Of a stretch of DNA of 64,000 nucleotides, positions 1-10,619 are shown piece by piece. This DNA comes from an uncultured Eubacteriales bacterium. GTDB taxonomy: Bacteria; Acidobacteriota; Aminicenantia; Aminicenantales; Saccharicenantaceae. The stretch covers positions 18,665 through 82,664 of the forward strand of contig CAZNPB010000001.1 in assembly GCA_964574895.1 (NCBI GenBank), read 5' to 3'. Within the stretch, counting starts at the first letter, position 1; each line of letters starts with the position of its first letter. A program made the position numbers and the translations under genes. The notes under the pieces are model-generated. The model was not told the origin of the DNA. It saw only the letters and a program-made list of their open reading frames with translations, and made no database searches.

Positions 1-75
1 CGCGGGAAGGAGAGGCGACCGTCTGGCCCGCTCCGGCCGTTACCTTTATACCGTATTGCGCGAATTTTTCATATA
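1..75 (-). repeat. Truncated, diverged duplicate of the 3' end of the sigma-54 regulator gene (direct-repeat partner of 1456..1530)
   Basis: Hand alignment with offset +1455 gives 68 of 75 positions identical. The minus-strand translation IYEKFAQYGIKVTAGAGQTVASPSR matches LYKKLEQYGIKVTAGAGETVASPSR of the intact gene. The copy runs off the left window edge. Confidence 0.8.
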
Positions 76-178
76 TAAGGATAGGAAATTCTCTTATTCG
101 CCCGGCGTCAGATCGCCGGCCTCGAACCCGGGATCGGACCTTCCCTCCGCAGCAAACTGGATCGGCTTTCTGCTTCGG

Positions 179-1261
179 CTAATCGGTGATCTGCTCCGCT
201 ATCTTGGCAGCCAGATCATCCAGGCTGACAGTTCCGGTATTGCTCAGTATTATGATGTTTGATCCGTTCTCGAGTATATGGAATAGCATCGACTGCGCTC
301 CCATGATGTTGCCGGGTCTTTTGACGATCGTATACATCCTGTTCTTGATATCGTAATCGGTATAAACCCAGACACCCAATCCGTACTCTCCGGGGCCGGA
401 GGTGAACATCATCTTCATGGCCGCCTTCGAAATGAGCTTCCCGCCGAACAGAGCCTCCGAAAACTTGTCGACATCGTCGGCTGTCGAGTACATTCCTCCG
501 GCGGCATACCAGTTACCCCAGTAAACGGGAAAGTCGTTTGAAAGCATCTTCAGATCGTCCCTGTAGAAATAGGTGTCCGCAAGCTTATCGACGATCTTTT
601 CCTGTGTCATCATACCGGTCGAGGTCATCTTCAGGGGCTCAAGGATGTTCTCTTTAAGAGCTTCTTCGAACGCTTTCCCCGTCCGTTTTTCGACTATTTT
701 CCCCAGAATAATGAAATCGGCATTGTTGTAATCGAACCTGGTTCCCGGCTTATCGACCAACGGATATGACGAGTATGGCGATAGCAGCTCATCCGGAGTG
801 TGCGGAAGCTGATATTGCGGCATGCCCGTCCGCAATACGGTCTCGAGTGTCACTCCATCGTCCATGTTTCGCAGGCCCGATGTCATATTCATCAATTGTT
901 TGACCGTCACCTGGCCGGCCGCAGGCCCTTGGTATTCAGGCAGATAGGCGCCGAAGGGCTGTTCAGGATCAATGAGCCCTCGATCGGCCAATTGAAGTAT
1001 GAGAACGGCCGTGAAGGCCTTTGTTATCGAGGCGATTTTATATCTGGTTTCCGGAGTGTTGGGTATCTTGAACTGGAAATTGGCGTACCCGTAGCTCTTC
1101 CTGAGAATGATCCTGGAATCTTTTCTTATAAGTATCGTCCCATTGAAATTGTCGCTTTTCGCGAACGAATCGAGGTCATCCTCTATTGTCTGGGATCGGG
1201 AACAAGAAGGCGTCCGGAACAGGGCCAGAACGAGCAGTAGAATGAGTCCCGTCTTTTTCAT
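179..1261 (-). CDS. Serine hydrolase, beta-lactamase / penicillin-binding (class C-like) family, secreted
   Basis: From ORF 179..1303. It has the SxxK motif ASITKAF and a YxN-like YNN. I set the start at the internal Met (MKKTGLILLLVLALF), which gives a signal peptide. The region is ~50% GC against ~70% in the flanks. Confidence 0.8.
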   Translation of the reverse strand: MKKTGLILLLVLALFRTPSCSRSQTIEDDLDSFAKSDNFNGTILIRKDSRIILRKSYGYANFQFKIPNTPETRYKIASITKAFTAVLILQLADRGLIDPEQPFGAYLPEYQGPAAGQVTVKQLMNMTSGLRNMDDGVTLETVLRTGMPQYQLPHTPDELLSPYSSYPLVDKPGTRFDYNNADFIILGKIVEKRTGKAFEEALKENILEPLKMTSTGMMTQEKIVDKLADTYFYRDDLKMLSNDFPVYWGNWYAAGGMYSTADDVDKFSEALFGGKLISKAAMKMMFTSGPGEYGLGVWVYTDYDIKNRMYTIVKRPGNIMGAQSMLFHILENGSNIIILSNTGTVSLDDLAAKIAEQITD

Positions 1262-1405
1262 TGGCTTTCCAGATCTGCGCGACGTTATATCTGGTCGCGC
1301 CAAAAGACGTTAATTTCTCCGCTGAATGAAAGAAAATCAGGTCCCTCGTCAGGGCGCCCGTTGGCCTTGCTCCGGACGGGGCTCGTGACGAGCCCGGAGT
1401 CGCTG

Positions 1406-2860
1406 TCAGCGACCATCCTGCCCTTCGGAGTCCGGACTTTCATCCTCTCCCCCCTCGCGGGAAGGAGAGGCGACCGTCTCGCCCGCTCCGGCCGTTACCT
1501 TGATCCCGTATTGCTCGAGTTTTTTATAGAGGTTCGACCGCGGCGTGTCGATCTCCCGGGCCGTCTGGGAGATGTTCCAGTTGTTGGCCCGGAGCTTGGC
1601 CAGGAGGAAATCCCGCTCGGCCAGGTCGCGGAACTCGCGCAGCGTCTTGACCCCGGCCGCTTCGGGCAGGGCCGCCTCGGCTTTCTGCCGGAAGGCCTCG
1701 GGCAGGTCCGCGGTCTCGATGGCGTCCTTGTCGGTCATGATCATGAGCCGCTCGACGATGTTCCGCAGTTCGCGGACGTTGCCCTTCCAGGGATAGGCCG
1801 TCATGGCCGCCACGGCCTCCGGCGAGAACTTGCGCGGCCGGAAGTTGTTCTCCTCGGCGAAGGCCCGGGAGAAGTACTCGACCAGCAGGGGGATGTCCTC
1901 CTTGCGCTCCCGCAGGGCCGGCGAATAGAGCGGCACGACGTTCAGGCGGAAGTACAGGTCCTCCCGGAACCGACCTTCCTGGATCTCTTTGCGCAGGTCC
2001 TTGTTGGTCGCGGCGATGACCCGGACGTCGACCTTGGAGATCCGGCTCGAGCCGACCTTCTGGACCTCCCCCTCTTCGAGGACGCGGAGGACCTTGGATT
2101 GGGTCCGCAGGCTCATGTCGCCGATCTCGTCGAGGAAGATGGTGCCCCCGTCGGCCTGCTCGAATTTGCCCGTCTTCTTCTCCGTGGCCCCGGTGAAAGC
2201 GCCCTTTTCGTGGCCGAACAGCTCCGATTCGATGAGCTCCTCGGGGATGGCGGCGCAGTTGACCTGGACGAACGGCTCCCGGACCCGCAGGCTGTGGGCG
2301 TGGATGGACCGGGCCACGAGCTCCTTGCCCGTGCCGCTCTCGCCGTGGATCAGCACCGTGGCGTTGGTCGGGGCGATCATGAGGATCTCCTTCCAGAGGT
2401 TCTGGACGAGGGGGTGGCGGCCGACGATCTCGTAGCGCTTCTCGGCTTTCTTCTTGAGGTCTTGGTTCTCCCGGTCCAGGCTGGTCTGCCGGAGCGCGTT
2501 GCGGATGCTGATGAGGACCCGGTCGCGATGGAGGGGCTTCTCCAGGAAATCGAAGGCCCCCAGCTTGGTCGCCTCGACCGCCGTCTGGATCGTGCCCTGG
2601 CCCGAGATCATGATGACCTCGGGGACGAAGGGCCGCTCCCGCAGCTCGGCCAGGACCTCGAGGCCGCTCTTGCCGGGCATCTTGATGTCCAGCAGGACCA
2701 GGTCGATCCCGACCGTCTCCCGGAGCATCTCCAGGCCGTCCTCGCCCGTCGCCGCCTCGAAGAACTCGTAGCCCTCGTATTCGAGGATCATCCTCAAGGA
2801 CTTGCGGATGCCCTCCTCGTCGTCGATGACCAGGATACGGGCCTTGCGCTCGGGTTTCAT
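1406..2860 (-). CDS. Sigma-54-dependent Fis-family response regulator (NtrC/AtoC type)
   Basis: N-terminal receiver domain (ILVIDDE ... LVLLDIKMPG). AAA+ sigma-54 activator core (GESGTGKE Walker A, GAFTGA loop in EKGAFTGA). C-terminal Fis-type HTH (ISQTAREIDTPRSNLYKKL). Confidence 0.95.
   Translation of the reverse strand: MKPERKARILVIDDEEGIRKSLRMILEYEGYEFFEAATGEDGLEMLRETVGIDLVLLDIKMPGKSGLEVLAELRERPFVPEVIMISGQGTIQTAVEATKLGAFDFLEKPLHRDRVLISIRNALRQTSLDRENQDLKKKAEKRYEIVGRHPLVQNLWKEILMIAPTNATVLIHGESGTGKELVARSIHAHSLRVREPFVQVNCAAIPEELIESELFGHEKGAFTGATEKKTGKFEQADGGTIFLDEIGDMSLRTQSKVLRVLEEGEVQKVGSSRISKVDVRVIAATNKDLRKEIQEGRFREDLYFRLNVVPLYSPALRERKEDIPLLVEYFSRAFAEENNFRPRKFSPEAVAAMTAYPWKGNVRELRNIVERLMIMTDKDAIETADLPEAFRQKAEAALPEAAGVKTLREFRDLAERDFLLAKLRANNWNISQTAREIDTPRSNLYKKLEQYGIKVTAGAGETVASPSREGGEDESPDSEGQDGR
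1456..1530 (-). repeat. Direct-repeat partner of 1..75, lying inside the intact regulator gene's 3' end
   Basis: See the 1..75 feature; ~91% identity over 75 nt. Confidence 0.8.
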
Positions 2861-2882
2861 CGGTCGCTCGCCTCCGACCCGG

Positions 2883-2893
2883 ATTTTAGCACA
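2883..2893 (-). promoter_or_regulatory. Candidate extended -10 promoter (TGTGCTAAAAT) for the regulator gene
   Basis: The minus strand reads tgtgctaaaat, 22 nt upstream of the ATG at 2860. A GGAGG RBS lies between. Member of the recurrent motif. Confidence 0.45.
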
Positions 2894-2904
2894 CCCGTCC
2901 CCCT

Positions 2905-2915
2905 TGTGGTAGACT
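2905..2915 (+). promoter_or_regulatory. Candidate extended -10 promoter (TGTGGTAGACT) for the M16 peptidase operon
   Basis: TGnTAGACT lies ~29 nt upstream of the GTG start at 2944, in the divergent intergenic region. Confidence 0.35.
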
Positions 2916-2943
2916 GGGGCCGGGAGAGCCCCGGGGATCGGCC

Positions 2944-4305
2944 GTGTCCGGAAAACGTTGGCGAGCGCGGGTCGCGGGGGCGGCCCTGGCCGCCGGTCTC
3001 GGCTTGTGGGCCGGGACCGCCGCGGCCGGAGGACCGGAGCGGTCCTTCACCCTCGACAACGGCCTGCGGGTCTTCCTCTACGAAAAGCGCGACGTCCCCC
3101 TCCTCCACCTCGCGGCCGGCTTCGACGTCGGCTCCAAGGACGAGACGGACGCGACGAGCGGCTTCGTCCACCTCCTCGAGCACGCCCTCCTGTTCCGGAG
3201 CGGAGCGGCGGACCGGGGAGCGGACATGCGCCGCCACGGGGCCTATTTCAACGGTCATACGAGCCAGGACCTGTCGGTCTTCGAGATCTCGCTGCCGTCG
3301 TCCGAGGCCGGCTACGCTTTGGGCGCCCTGAAGGACCTGGTGTTCGGGCTGGATCTCGGGCCGGCGGACCTCGAGCGCGAGAGGGAGATCATCCTCGAAG
3401 AGATAGGCCAGATGGACGACGACCCGGAGCGCCGGTCCGTCGACCTGGTGCTCCAGGCCCTGTTCCCCGGGCATCCCTACGGCCGGCCCGTTTACGGGCG
3501 CCCGGACGTCATCGCCGCGGCCACGCCCGAAGGGCTCTCGGCCTTCCACCGGCGGTATTTCGCCGCCGCCAACGGGGCCCTGGCCGTGGTGGGCGATTTC
3601 GAGACGGCCGACATGGAGCGCCGGGTCCGGGAGGTCTTCGGCCCGCTGCCCGAGGCCGCGTCCGCTCCGGCCGGCTTCCCGATGGCCGGGCCGCTCAAGA
3701 AGGCCTCATCCGAGCGCCTCGAGCGGGACGTCCGCGGCGGCTATCTGACCGTCGGTTTCGCCGCTCCGGACTACAACCATCCCGATCAGTACGCCATGAG
3801 CGTCCTCGTCGAGGCCCTCGGCCGGGGCGTCAATCCCCTGCTGGGCGGGTATCTGCGGAGCCTGCGCGACTCCGTCCAGGCCGTGTCCATGGCCTATCTC
3901 CCGCTCCGGTACGGCGGCGCGGCCTTGGTCACGGTCAGGGCCGATCCCAAGGACCTGCCGGCCGTCGAGCGGGCCGCGGTCGTGTTCCTGAAGCGCGCCG
4001 GCGGCCAGTCCTATTCGAAAAAGGACTTCATCGACCCGGAAGCCGAGATGGCCGCTTTCGATTACCTGGAAATGGCCAAGAACCAGCTTCGCTTCGCGGC
4101 CGGACGGGCCGAGGAATCCGGTCTGCAGCTGGCCGGGGCCCTGGTCCGCTACCTGCTCCTCAACACCCGCGACCAGCCCGGACCCTACCTTGACGCCATC
4201 GCCAGGATCGACTCGGGCGACTTGCGCAAAGCCTCGGGCCGCTACCTCGGCCGGGGCGAGTCCGCCGCGGTCTCGATCGTCCCGCTCCCGGAGGCCCGGA
4301 AGTGA
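2944..4305 (+). CDS. M16 (pitrilysin) family zinc peptidase, secreted, catalytic subunit
   Basis: Inverted zinc motif HxxEH (FVHLLEHALLF) near the N-terminus. N-terminal signal peptide. GTG start. Confidence 0.9.
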   Translation: MSGKRWRARVAGAALAAGLGLWAGTAAAGGPERSFTLDNGLRVFLYEKRDVPLLHLAAGFDVGSKDETDATSGFVHLLEHALLFRSGAADRGADMRRHGAYFNGHTSQDLSVFEISLPSSEAGYALGALKDLVFGLDLGPADLEREREIILEEIGQMDDDPERRSVDLVLQALFPGHPYGRPVYGRPDVIAAATPEGLSAFHRRYFAAANGALAVVGDFETADMERRVREVFGPLPEAASAPAGFPMAGPLKKASSERLERDVRGGYLTVGFAAPDYNHPDQYAMSVLVEALGRGVNPLLGGYLRSLRDSVQAVSMAYLPLRYGGAALVTVRADPKDLPAVERAAVVFLKRAGGQSYSKKDFIDPEAEMAAFDYLEMAKNQLRFAAGRAEESGLQLAGALVRYLLLNTRDQPGPYLDAIARIDSGDLRKASGRYLGRGESAAVSIVPLPEARK

Positions 4306-5645
4306 GGCGGCTCCGCCGGTCCTTCCTTCCCGCGGCCGGGCTGCTGGCCGTTCTCCTGTCCCCCGCCGCTTTGGGCCTCGGAGCGGAGAGCGCCCCGGCC
4401 TGGCCCTGGAAGAACGCGCCGGAGACGCTCTCGCTGGCCGGCGGGGTCCCCTGTATCTACCAGAAGGACGCCTCCTCGGCCACGACGGTCGTCGGCTTGT
4501 TCATCGGCGGCGGCCGGGCGGCGGTCCCGGCCGGCCTGGATGGGCTGGCCGCCCTGTCGACGCGCCTTCTCCTGGAGATCACCGACGAAGGCCGGGCCCG
4601 GGAGCTGATGTCGCAGGCCACCCGCTTGAGCTTCGCCGGCTTGGAAGACCACTCCCTCGTCCTGATCGAATGCCTGACCGTCAACCTCGAGGCGGCCCTG
4701 AAGGCGGCGGCGAAGATCGTTCTCGATCCCCTGATCTCCGGCCTGCGGGTCGGGCGGATCCGGGAGCTCATGGAGATCAACGGCCGGGCCGACGACGATG
4801 ACGCCGTGGCGGCCGGCCGGCAGGCCATCTTCCGCGGCCTCTTCGGCGACGCGGGCTACGGGACCTCTCCCTTCGGGACCGAACGGACCCTCGGGGCCAT
4901 CGACCGCAAAACCGTCCTGGCTTTCGTCCGGCGCCACGTCGTCCGGCCGAACGTCTTCATCTGCGTCCAGTCGGACCTCGGCCGGGACGCCGTGCGGCGC
5001 CTGCTCGAGAGCTCGTTCAAGGCCTTCCCCGAAGGGACGGCGGCGGACCTGCCCCCGCAAGGACCGGCCCTGCCGCCGGACCGGGACATCGCCCTGGTCC
5101 GGGACACCCGGCAAGCCTATGTCGGCCGGGGATTCGGTCTGCCCCGCGCCGGGCTGCGGGACATGGCCATGGGCATCCTGCTCGAAACGCTGCTCGGCCA
5201 GGGTCCCGGTTCCCGGCTCTGGCGATTGAGGGCCGACGAAGGGCTGGCCTACGGCGTCGACGCCGAGCTGACCTGGACAAGATCGGCCGGGGTGCTGATC
5301 GCCCGCTTGGAGGCCGGACGCGAGAAGCGGGCCCGGGCGGAAGAGGCCCTCGATAGGGTTCTCGCGGAGCTCGGCCGGGACGGGCCCGGATCCGGGGAGC
5401 TCGAAGCGGCCAAGGTCATGGCCCGGACCCGCTTCCTCCGGGAAACGGAGGCCAAGGCCCCGCGCCTGCGCCTGCTCGGCCTCTACGCGATCCTCGGCCT
5501 GGGGGTCGAGGCCGTCCCCGAACTCACCGCCGCGATCGGCGCCGTGTCCCGGGAGGAGATGACGGCGTATATTCGCGCCGCCCTCGATCCGGCCCGGGCG
5601 CTGCGGGTCACGGTCGGTCCGGTCCCGCCGCCGGAGGCGCGTTGA
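4302..5645 (+). CDS. M16 family peptidase-like protein (no HxxEH; probable non-catalytic partner)
   Basis: 4-nt overlap with the upstream M16 gene. Signal peptide. Length and composition are M16-like, but the zinc motif is absent. Confidence 0.8.
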   Translation: MRRLRRSFLPAAGLLAVLLSPAALGLGAESAPAWPWKNAPETLSLAGGVPCIYQKDASSATTVVGLFIGGGRAAVPAGLDGLAALSTRLLLEITDEGRARELMSQATRLSFAGLEDHSLVLIECLTVNLEAALKAAAKIVLDPLISGLRVGRIRELMEINGRADDDDAVAAGRQAIFRGLFGDAGYGTSPFGTERTLGAIDRKTVLAFVRRHVVRPNVFICVQSDLGRDAVRRLLESSFKAFPEGTAADLPPQGPALPPDRDIALVRDTRQAYVGRGFGLPRAGLRDMAMGILLETLLGQGPGSRLWRLRADEGLAYGVDAELTWTRSAGVLIARLEAGREKRARAEEALDRVLAELGRDGPGSGELEAAKVMARTRFLRETEAKAPRLRLLGLYAILGLGVEAVPELTAAIGAVSREEMTAYIRAALDPARALRVTVGPVPPPEAR

Positions 5646-5648
5646 GGG

Positions 5649-6278
5649 TCAGCGCAGCTCCGTGCTGACGATCGTGATGCGGTCCGGGTAGGTGATCGGG
5701 CCGAGCGGGGTCGAGACCGTCGGCTGGGCGTCCAGGGCCAGCCGGGCGGGCGTCCGGTTCCGGCCCCCGATCGCCAGGGCCAGGCCGAGCAGGTCCTCGT
5801 AGCGCTGGTCCCCGAAAAATTCGAGAAGGTCGAGCGACAGCCGCAGCGGGACGACCGTCTCCTCGCCCGTTCCGGGGATCTCAAAGGGCCTGTCGATATT
5901 GCCGGTCACGGTCGGCCGGCCGTCGATGAGCAAACGGCACTCGAGCCCGGTCAGGGTGCTCGCCGACCGCCGCGACCCGCCCGTCCCGTCGTTGGGATTG
6001 ACGGCCACGACGTCGACCACGAACTCGACCGGGAGCTTCCTGGACCGATAGGCCTGCAGGGCCTGGAGCCCCTCGGCGACACTGAGATCGCCGATCCCGG
6101 CCTTCCCGCCCAGATCGACGCCCAGCAGTTTGAAGTCTCGGACGCCGCTCAACTTGAACTGGAGCTTCTTGAGCGAAGCGAGGACCGAGGCCATGTCCGT
6201 CAGCGCGGCGCAGGACGTCAGGACGAGGACGCCCGCCAGCGCGACGACGGCGGCCGCCTTCCGGCTTTCTCTGGTCAT
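5649..6278 (-). CDS. Lipoprotein with LEA_2 / water-stress-hypersensitive-response-like domain
   Basis: Lipobox VLVLTSC. The sequence resembles LEA14-type beta-sandwich proteins by eye. AGGAGG RBS upstream. Confidence 0.6.
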   Translation of the reverse strand: MTRESRKAAAVVALAGVLVLTSCAALTDMASVLASLKKLQFKLSGVRDFKLLGVDLGGKAGIGDLSVAEGLQALQAYRSRKLPVEFVVDVVAVNPNDGTGGSRRSASTLTGLECRLLIDGRPTVTGNIDRPFEIPGTGEETVVPLRLSLDLLEFFGDQRYEDLLGLALAIGGRNRTPARLALDAQPTVSTPLGPITYPDRITIVSTELR

Positions 6279-6309
6279 GGCAATCCTCCTGGTCCGGGTC
6301 TTCGAAACG

Positions 6310-10619
<4,310 letters not shown>

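Follow-up and report, generated by a model that had tools for sequence, protein, structure and literature searches.

At the left end of the DNA analysed here, a foreign gene lies between two copies of a 136-bp segment in which the 3' end of a regulator gene overlaps the promoter and the 5' end of rnpB, the RNase P RNA gene. The overlap appears to have been duplicated with a single origin, and the space between the regulator and rnpB would then have become a cargo slot, of which a serine hydrolase gene is the present cargo; we give this overall reading a probability of roughly 0.7. The window, as the whole stretch of 64,000 nucleotides is called below, corresponds to G000:C1:18665-82664, and its left flank was taken from the rest of the same contig. 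The genome, G000, is metagenome-assembled, consists of 110 contigs and has 3% contamination. The relatives to which it was compared are metagenome-assembled as well.

The left copy of the direct repeat spans positions -62..73, of which 1..73 fall inside the window, and the right copy spans 1393..1528. The two are identical at 128 of 136 positions, leaving 8 mismatches. Their parts within the window (1-73 and 1456-1528) agree at 67 of 73 positions; stretched to 75 nucleotides (1..75 and 1456..1530), they agree at 68, the count that a preliminary description of this DNA had also reached. Leftward extension of the contig, which that description had proposed, lengthened the repeat to 136 bp and revealed rnpB. 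The intact gene starts at position 34 and runs leftwards on the minus strand to 343 nt beyond the window (G000:C1:18321-18698). It matches model positions 1-367 of RF00010 with 269.2 bits, compared to a gathering score of 100, as a class A bacterial RNase P RNA. Its CR-I (GAGGAAAGUCCGG) is intact, and it is the sole intact copy in the G000 assembly. The repeat contains the rnpB promoter and the first 96 nt of rnpB. The preliminary description regarded the repeat as the 3' end of the regulator gene. Codons of the regulator are indeed included, but so are the promoter and the 5' end of rnpB: the repeat is the overlap of the two genes. Both copies are therefore attached to a gene, and the statement that only the right copy is so attached fails, because the left copy is the start of the intact rnpB.

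The regulator gene (1406..2860, minus strand) encodes an NtrC/NtrX-type sigma-54-dependent response regulator of 484 aa. It contains the Pfam domains Response_reg, Sigma54_activat, AAA_lid_14 and HTH_8, with PF00072, PF00158 and PF02954 all above cut-off, and nearly all of its homologues are 484-485 aa long. Its final 28 codons and the stop codon come from rnpB-derived sequence. Relatives with an empty site, which the preliminary description recommended looking for, are abundant: of the 42 species genomes of the genus that were compared, most have the overlap of regulator and rnpB in a single copy, and it recurs in this form in other families of the same order. G007 has such an empty site, and there the stop codon of the regulator lies 84 nt inside rnpB. 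The ground state in the Aminicenantes-like lineage would be an NtrX-type regulator gene running into rnpB on the same strand, with the first 84 nt of rnpB supplying the last 28 codons and the stop codon of the regulator, and with the -10 box of rnpB, TATAAA, placed within the Gly-Ile-Lys codons of the regulator.

The TATAAA box occupies 45..50 of the left copy (minus strand, which is the rnpB strand). Its decayed equivalent in the right copy (1500..1505, minus strand) reads GATCAA, the box having been lost via the synonymous changes GGT ATA to GGG ATC. The sequence GGTATAAA is present 8-12 nt upstream of rnpB throughout the order, also in genera without an overlapping regulator. Six of nine right copies have lost TATAAA; every left copy seen and all 13 aligned empty sites retain it. 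A strict sigma-70 scan passed over TATAAA, since it accepts only a T as the sixth base of the second hexamer. Position and conservation suggest that TATAAA is the -10 box of the rnpB promoter.

What remains of rnpB at the right copy falls short of a class A RNase P RNA. It comprises about the first 96 nt (1393..1489, minus strand; RF00010 49.4 bits, below the cut-off of 100) and a 22-nt distal remnant, CCCCGTCCGGAGCAAGGCCAA (1360..1385, minus strand), which matches the real rnpB at 21 of 22 positions and is parted from the 5' fragment by an internal deletion of about 130 nt. Its CR-I is mutated from GAGGAAAG to GATGAAAG. Judged by its sequence, the right-hand fragment is a pseudogene. In the left copy, 35..73 (minus strand) is a relic of the last HTH codons of the regulator and is now rnpB promoter region only. 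The derived columns of the right copy (15, 50, 110 and 113) correspond to the stop/loop, CR-I and the -10 box, and those of the left copy (123, 127 and 133) lie in the former coding part. The two copies have decayed in a complementary fashion. Left and right copies also carry common species-specific variants, which we take as gene conversion; the copies of G020 are 99.2% identical.

This pattern resembles duplication-degeneration-complementation in that each copy has lost a function that the other keeps: the right copy the promoter box and CR-I, the left copy the regulator coding. It differs from it in that the unit is a 136-bp overlap of a protein gene and an RNA gene and not a whole gene. 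Furthermore, the partition is immediate and structural here, and the later decay merely confirms it.

The segment between the repeat copies (74..1340, about 1.27 kb) has a GC content of 50.5%, compared to a genome mean of 68.3% (sd 3.9) over genome windows (z = -4.5), and its tetranucleotide distance is within the top 0.7% of these windows. The flanks on both sides have 66-73% GC. By both measures, proposed earlier as a check, the segment is outside normal genome variation. The gene within it (179..1261, minus strand, the same orientation as the regulator and rnpB) encodes a serine hydrolase of 360 aa that matches PF00144 with 199 bits over profile positions 19-323 of 329, so that the preliminary description was accurate in reporting a beta-lactamase-family gene of about 50% GC in a context of about 70%. 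The full-length domain and the SITK (SxxK) motif of the translation place the protein in PF00144/MEROPS S12. It shares the domain, this motif, a length of about 360 aa and a hydrophobic, signal-like N-terminal segment with the Streptomyces R61 DD-peptidase, the Bacillus alkaline D-peptidase and the PBP-related esterases of the family. Among proteins of solved structure, alkaline D-peptidase, PBP-related proteins and the R61 DD-peptidase come closest, but their E-values are just ~1e-25 to 1e-29; from its sequence, the product is predicted to be a DD-peptidase/D-peptidase-like S12 protein. The suggested search for a donor found the best homologues at 60-66% identity, all in Bacteroidota. GC3 of the gene is 0.63 compared to 0.8-0.95 in native-looking genes. 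The hydrolase cassette is foreign and of Bacteroidota-like origin, because it is a composition outlier and its nearest homologues are those of Bacteroidota. Together with the empty sites, these data bear out the earlier proposal of a foreign cassette at a gene end, with that end duplicated.

Logan contigs of three separate SRA runs contain the island and both of its junctions, copy-specific SNPs included, with 99.9-100% identity across the island and both repeat copies. Since three independent run assemblies recover the locus, the structure is not a chimera. No circular or excised form of the island was seen: two of the three contigs are 1485 bp long, which is the repeat period of 1455 plus 30, but a linear repeat-bounded locus in a k = 31 graph gives this length as well as a circle would.

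The duplication is present in at least nine species (G000, G020, G013, G022, G002, G015, G053, G049 and G016). The locus of G016 lies on two contigs, with the duplication present and no cargo assembled. Elsewhere the cargoes include a kinase, an M20 peptidase, a Cys/Met PLP enzyme, lipoprotein-like ORFs, other PF00144 proteins and a two-component block, and three of them are nested deletion derivatives of a single native-GC gene set. Segment 74..1340 has no DNA similarity to the other occupied cargoes except for the border and the pseudogene remnants. A hydrolase common to several slots was rejected as a candidate; the resemblance to the hydrolase of G022/G015 is at family level only (28%), with no DNA similarity. 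About 45 nt beside the left repeat resemble the inner slot sequence of G020 and not Bacteroidota DNA.

The slot border is marked by a 16-nt motif (77..92; AAGGATAGGAAATTCT, consensus AAGGATAGGAAATTCC). It is found at the identical junction in G020, G013, G022, G002, G015 and G053, hence in seven species with G000, is absent from empty sites and occurs once in the G000 genome. A general repeat of the REP/MITE kind was rejected as its source, the motif being unique in the genome. The junction of the rnpB-pseudogene deletion is common to G000, G020, G002 and G013. The common border motif and the common deletion therefore argue for a slot that arose once, with refilling, exchange and loss following later. 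The left junction of G049 differs and the border motif is absent there, so not every occupied site need share one event. Three repeat copies are present in G020 and also, with other boundaries, in G027, which belongs to a different family.

On the regulator tree, which may differ from the species tree, the occupied species are scattered (7 state changes), and their union in one clade is rejected (p-AU 3e-45). G002 and G053 have cargoes that are 95.5% identical and regulators that are 87.4% identical; for G015 and G053 the values are 92% and 96%, respectively. Cargo has probably been exchanged between species.

The best explanation of the slot begins in one ancestor, in which DNA would have been inserted between the regulator and rnpB along with a duplicate of their shared segment. 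The duplication, now 136 bp, would once have measured at least ~320 bp. It probably arose either through a Campbell-type single crossover with a circular molecule bearing a copy of the overlap or through tandem duplication followed by DNA capture. After the insertion, the right-hand copy would have stayed with the regulator and the left-hand copy, with the promoter, with rnpB, while the spare half of rnpB on the regulator side would have decayed into the pseudogene. The gap would have become a cargo slot that was refilled with unrelated genes, swapped between species through recombination within the flanks and repeats, where conservation is high, and cleanly emptied by recombination from repeat to repeat. 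Since the same duplication is found elsewhere with unrelated cargo, the hydrolase presumably entered a pre-existing slot, or replaced the cargo in one; the single Bacteroidota-like S12-family gene fills it in G000 today.

The locus has much in common with tRNA and tmRNA islands. The foreign DNA adjoins one end of a conserved gene for a structural RNA, this gene stays whole thanks to duplicated target sequence, and a displaced fragment marks the far end: rnpB is intact on the left, its 5' fragment is displaced to the right, and the empty sites are single-copy. Regeneration of the target and displacement of a fragment form the island paradigm of the Islander paper (PMC4383910). Serial reuse of the site (three repeat copies in G020 and G027), variable cargo and empty relatives are further similarities; tandem ssrA islands are known in Dehalococcoides (PMC3146451). 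However, the target here is rnpB and not the 3' end of a tRNA or tmRNA gene. A tRNA or tmRNA target was considered and rejected: no such gene was found in the locus (L001), where the rnpB 5' end and the regulator 3' end serve as the target. No relevant account of integration at rnpB came up in a literature search. Other differences are that the promoter and the 5' end are duplicated and not the 3' end, that the duplication is long, that it also saves an overlapping protein gene, that none of the nine occupied sites encodes an integrase and that much of the cargo consists of ordinary metabolic genes of native GC.

An integron is another point of comparison, as promoter-less single genes of varied origin are found at one site, in one orientation and downstream of a resident promoter region. 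The slot is nevertheless not an integron cassette array: IntI is lacking, there being no tyrosine recombinase on the contig, no attI or attC was identified, and the cassettes are bordered by copies of the rnpB/regulator overlap and not by attC. A transposon or IS insertion was likewise rejected. The duplication is 136 bp and not 2-15 bp, no inverted repeats were found at the island ends, and PF00144 is the only Pfam domain in the cargo gene.

Site-specific integration is an unlikely alternative, although several observations suit it. In this view a recombinase, of the tyrosine type or another, would have acted in trans or would later have been deleted; it would have integrated cassettes with an attP mimicking the regulator 3' end/rnpB 5' end, and the 16-nt motif would belong to the recombination site. 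Every occupied species, or every cargo at the least, would go back to an integration of its own. The junction (…TCGAGTT followed by the motif) is at one position in six species with differing cargo, and the motif, unique in the genome, is kept while the neighboring cargo is unrelated; a site-specific system, too, would leave behind a conserved 16-nt motif at a fixed junction. In G020 there are two copies of the motif, each adjoining a repeat copy, as serial integration predicts, and the site was used again in another family. A regenerated target with a displaced fragment also fits the island paradigm as outlined in the Islander paper. However, the common pseudogene deletion speaks for shared descent of the frame, variants specific to the host lineage are found in the left as well as the right copies, and the nested cargoes of native GC also weigh against such integration. 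The motif is located where the -35/UP element of rnpB would be, and selection for promoter function can therefore explain its conservation. The preliminary description saw no integrase or transposase in the window, and the same is true more widely: no PF00589 or PF00239 recombinase was found in the window region or on the whole 154-kb contig C1, and Pfam detected no recombinase in the cargo ORFs scanned from G000, G020, G013, G022, G002, G015, G053, G049 and G027. None of the nine occupied sites bears a trace of an integrase-type element.

The literal form of the preliminary model, in which the hydrolase cassette integrated once in the G000 lineage and made the duplication on arrival, is very improbable. 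Exactly one foreign gene lies between the repeats, and the composition shifts sharply near the repeat boundaries, as this model would have it. But the same duplication is found elsewhere with unrelated cargo, the border motif in six other species and the pseudogene deletion in three, and the stretch by the left repeat that resembles the G020 slot is not of Bacteroidota type. The left and right copies differ at 8 positions in a pattern that tracks functional decay, which implies long residence. Finally, the possibility that a low-GC piece of another organism was joined in at a repeated k-mer by assembly or binning, suggested by the contig number and contamination of the source genome and by an insert with the composition of another phylum, is effectively refuted by the three SRA runs, by the same architecture in eight other species and by the differences between the copies, which therefore are not one collapsed repeat.

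A reading of the locus from open reading frames only has a blind spot, in that a seemingly orphan 3'-end repeat is the start of an essential RNA gene. Island-finding software centered on tRNA and tmRNA genes misses such candidate targets as rnpB 5' ends and gene overlaps. The order-wide overlap of a protein gene and rnpB on the same strand is an unusual arrangement. The putative -10 box of rnpB would be written in codons and fix an A/T-ending Ile codon (ATA), and the loop of an RNA hairpin provides the stop codon of the regulator. Duplication of this overlap amounts to a natural experiment, in which the overlap was split and each copy lost just the signals of the other gene. Tentatively, the rnpB promoter/5' segment and the 16-nt motif might together act as a platform for cassette capture, a portable recombination anchor derived from an essential, near-invariant RNA gene. 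Such an anchor could be used by host homologous recombination or by a trans-acting recombinase. If this were true, promoter-less single genes from other phyla could be inserted, stacked, swapped and deleted, and both overlapping essential genes would be spared. The slot appears to be a hot spot, free of recombinases or at least with none in sight, at which uncultured Aminicenantes-like bacteria gain, swap and lose genes, one of them from Bacteroidota.

The segment that carries the hydrolase gene (74..1340) has a GC content of 50.5%, compared with 66-73% in both flanks. The assembly under study (G000; other G numbers denote compared genomes, L numbers extracted loci) is of the metagenome type, with 110 contigs, 3.12 Mb and 68.2% GC. 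Among all of its 1.27-kb windows the segment is an outlier, as the preliminary description had suspected, with z = -4.5 in GC and a tetranucleotide distance in the top 0.7%. The direct repeats that bracket it, 1-73 and 1456-1528, are identical at 67 of 73 positions; the 68/75 counted earlier by hand is reproduced when the comparison runs to position 75. The window corresponds to G000:C1:18665-82664. When contig sequence further left is added (negative positions), the repeat grows to 136 bp (-62..73 and 1393..1528), and the two copies differ at 8 positions. A binning or assembly chimera is ruled out because Logan contigs from three separate SRA runs contain the identical hydrolase joined to both copies at 99.9-100% identity, copy-specific SNPs included.

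An Rfam scan of the locus showed that the left copy is the start of the RNase P RNA gene, rnpB. The full-length gene runs from 34 to -343 on the minus strand (RF00010, 269 bits, model 1-367) and is the sole intact rnpB of the assembly. A second, sub-threshold match of 49 bits lies at 1227-1489. The repeat consists of 39 nt upstream of rnpB and its first ~96 nt, the latter covering P1-P3, CR-I and the next hairpin. Read as protein-coding sequence, these 136 bp supply the last HTH codons of the NtrC/NtrX-type sigma-54 response regulator (1406..2860, minus strand; Pfam domains Response_reg, Sigma54_activat and HTH_8), followed by its 28-codon tail and stop codon. The regulator stop TAA lies inside the conserved UAAC loop of a hairpin with the Rfam consensus GccgGgUAACgcCcggc, P8 in E. 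coli numbering. Thus both copies are attached to genes, the left to the start of rnpB and the right to the end of the regulator, and the earlier statement that only the right one is so attached does not hold. Directly downstream of rnpB are an 81-aa hydrophobic ORF without a Pfam match (-380..-625; L001 875-1120, minus strand) and then an MFS transporter. This side of rnpB is variable too, since the distance to the left-flank homologue is about 1 kb in G023, G004 and G024.

Most species of the genus have rnpB and regulator matches that overlap by ~133-137 bp on one contig, that is, the segment is present once. In G007, for example, the regulator ORF ends at 2955 of L005 and rnpB starts at 2872, giving an 84-nt same-strand overlap. 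The overlapped arrangement is also found in other families of the order (G025, G033, G039, G028, G031, G032 and G029), so empty-site relatives of the kind that had been sought do exist. Nearly all regulator homologues are 484-485 aa long, a uniformity expected if the RNA fixes the regulator stop; the named relatives belong to 'Candidatus Aminicenantes'.

The overlap is duplicated in at least 9 of 42 species genomes of the genus (G000, G020, G013, G002, G022, G015, G053, G049 and G016). All occupied genomes checked have an intact rnpB (269-275 bits) next to the left copy and an rnpB fragment (38-64 bits) as the right copy. Insert lengths are 1.3-12.8 kb, and the cargo varies among species: a PF00144 hydrolase in G000, a Ser/Thr kinase with TPR repeats in G020, small lipoprotein-like ORFs in G013 and a 564-aa protein without a Pfam match in G049. 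G053, G015, G022 and G002 carry nested versions of one native-GC gene set, which comprises a PF00144+DUF3471 protein, a second PF00144 protein, a Cys/Met PLP enzyme, an M20 peptidase, an epimerase, a glycosidase and a methyltransferase. The G015 cargo includes that of G022 at 96% identity and that of G002 at 93%. In G053 (L035, G053:C1, ~5300-10000) the PF00144/DUF3471 gene is split into ORFs of 118 and 375 aa and the Cys/Met PLP gene loses its frame after ~120 aa, which suggests that the shared cargo is decaying there.

Several features point to one origin for the frame of the slot. The motif AAGGATAGGAAATTCC lies directly beside the left copy (…TCGAGTT|motif) in seven species; in G000 the junction has ~10 extra nt that still resemble empty-site sequence. 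Empty sites lack the motif, and it has no second occurrence in the G000 genome. Furthermore, the right copies of G000, G020, G002 and G013 run on into an rnpB pseudogene with the same ~100-130-nt internal deletion (junction GGCCTTGCTCCGGATGGGGTTTGTG…|CCCGGAGTCGC). In G020 and G002 this pseudogene extends to rnpB position ~283, so the original duplication was at least ~320 bp. It is truncated further in G022, G015, G016 and G049. In G049 the border motif is missing and the left junction differs slightly; this site may have arisen independently or be a deletion derivative. At the deletion junction in G000, 1378-1394 forms a perfect 7-bp hairpin (GGGCTCG TGA CGAGCCC); the counterparts in G020, G002 and G013 do not pair. 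The first reading of this locus was right in its observation, now extended to 136 bp and to rnpB, and in proposing foreign DNA and empty sites. It missed the RNA gene, and the duplication it attributed to this integration is pre-existing and common to other species with other cargo.

The G000 cargo gene (179..1261, minus strand) encodes 360 aa with a full PF00144 domain and a SITK motif. The closest proteins of solved structure are alkaline D-peptidase, PBP-related proteins and the R61 DD-peptidase (E-values 1e-29 to 1e-25), so it is predicted to be a MEROPS S12-type enzyme, not a demonstrated beta-lactamase. A search for the donor lineage gave top homologues of 60-66% identity, and every one with a named source is from Bacteroidota (Niastella, Niabella, Chitinophaga, Sediminibacterium, Mucilaginibacter and Solitalea). 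The ~15 PF00144 paralogues in G000 are all at most 34% identical to it, and its GC3 is 0.63 compared with 0.8-0.95 in native-looking genes. Because ~45 nt beside the left repeat still resemble the inner slot sequence of G020, the foreign segment is little more than the gene itself, and it entered an existing slot or replaced earlier cargo there. In G053 a 3.6-kb two-component block of 44-50% GC (L035 ~1265-4900) lies just inside the border motif, where the hydrolase lies in G000. Its products are a PAS protein, a PAS histidine kinase and two putative receiver-like proteins. New foreign DNA thus seems to enter next to the motif. Three unrelated PF00144 genes occur among the slot cargoes (G000, G022/G015/G053 and G053), which, with the G000 paralogues, suggests that the family is unusually expanded in this lineage.

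On a maximum likelihood tree of the regulator, calculated without the duplicated part, the occupied species are scattered, which requires 7 state changes; well-supported branches force at least 4 of these. Constraining them to a single clade is rejected (p-AU 3e-45). Clean loss of cargo by repeat-to-repeat recombination, which would restore the empty site, can account for this patchiness. The cargoes of G002 and G053 are 95.5% identical and their regulators 87.4%; for G015 and G053 the values are 91-92.5% and 96.2%. As cargo and flank divergence disagree, locus DNA has been exchanged between species, in one direction or the other. Within a genome the two copies are 91.9-99.2% identical and have species-specific variants in common (GCGATC in G002, GGGAGGG in G020), a pattern that indicates gene conversion between them.

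Across the order, genera without the overlapping regulator (G038, G034 and G026) included, the box GGTATAAA sits 8-12 nt upstream of the rnpB 5' end. In G040 and G027, TTGACA-N17-TATAA(A/G) is found further upstream, ~30-35 nt from the mapped 5' end. The box GGTATAAA was not picked up by a strict sigma-70 scan, so its assignment as a predicted promoter element follows from position and conservation. In empty sites it reads as the codons GGT ATA AAG. The box is intact in all left copies seen and in 13/13 aligned empty sites, and is lost by synonymous Ile changes (ATA to ATC or ATT) in 6 of 9 right copies (G000, G013, G015, G053, G049 and G016), counts that come from related species and are not independent. 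The 8 differences between the G000 copies split by function. Derived states in the right copy affect the stop/loop (TAA to TGA), CR-I (GAGGAAAG to GATGAAAG) and two -10 box positions; those in the left copy affect three former-coding positions and one P1 position, the latter shared with the left copy of G013.

No tyrosine or serine recombinase was found among the slot-cargo ORFs scanned by Pfam or on contig C1, in keeping with the lack of an integrase or transposase noted at first sight. About 18 further islets with GC ≤51.5% occur in G000, outside the window among others at C37:26-28 kb, C16:19-22 kb, C6:9-15 kb, C5:8-9.5 kb, C15:33-37 kb, C19:35-43 kb and C1:107-118 kb, so the hydrolase segment is one of a class. 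Unlike the rnpB slot, at least three islets have tyrosine-recombinase genes or fragments inside or within a few kb (C37:26027-26377, C16:21960-22387 and C6:9295-9417). Cargo may be inserted and exchanged either by homologous recombination on the conserved anchor or by an unseen site-specific system.

The insert of G020 contains a third, decayed repeat end and a second copy of the motif. In another family, L028 (G027:C1) has three copies of the rnpB-5'/regulator-3' segment (1144-1192, 3613-3757 and 5620-5743), with boundaries unlike those of the genus studied here (g1), bracketing a beta-propeller protein and a PAS histidine kinase. The overlap has therefore been split repeatedly, in at least two lineages. 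A search of the open-access literature returned no report of rnpB as such an integration target, an absence of little weight. The tandem ssrA islands of Dehalococcoides offer a parallel (PMC3146451). Unlike those known RNA-gene islands, the slot has rnpB as its target, is without an integrase and duplicates the predicted promoter and 5' end of the RNA gene, in a segment that serves a protein gene and an RNA gene both.
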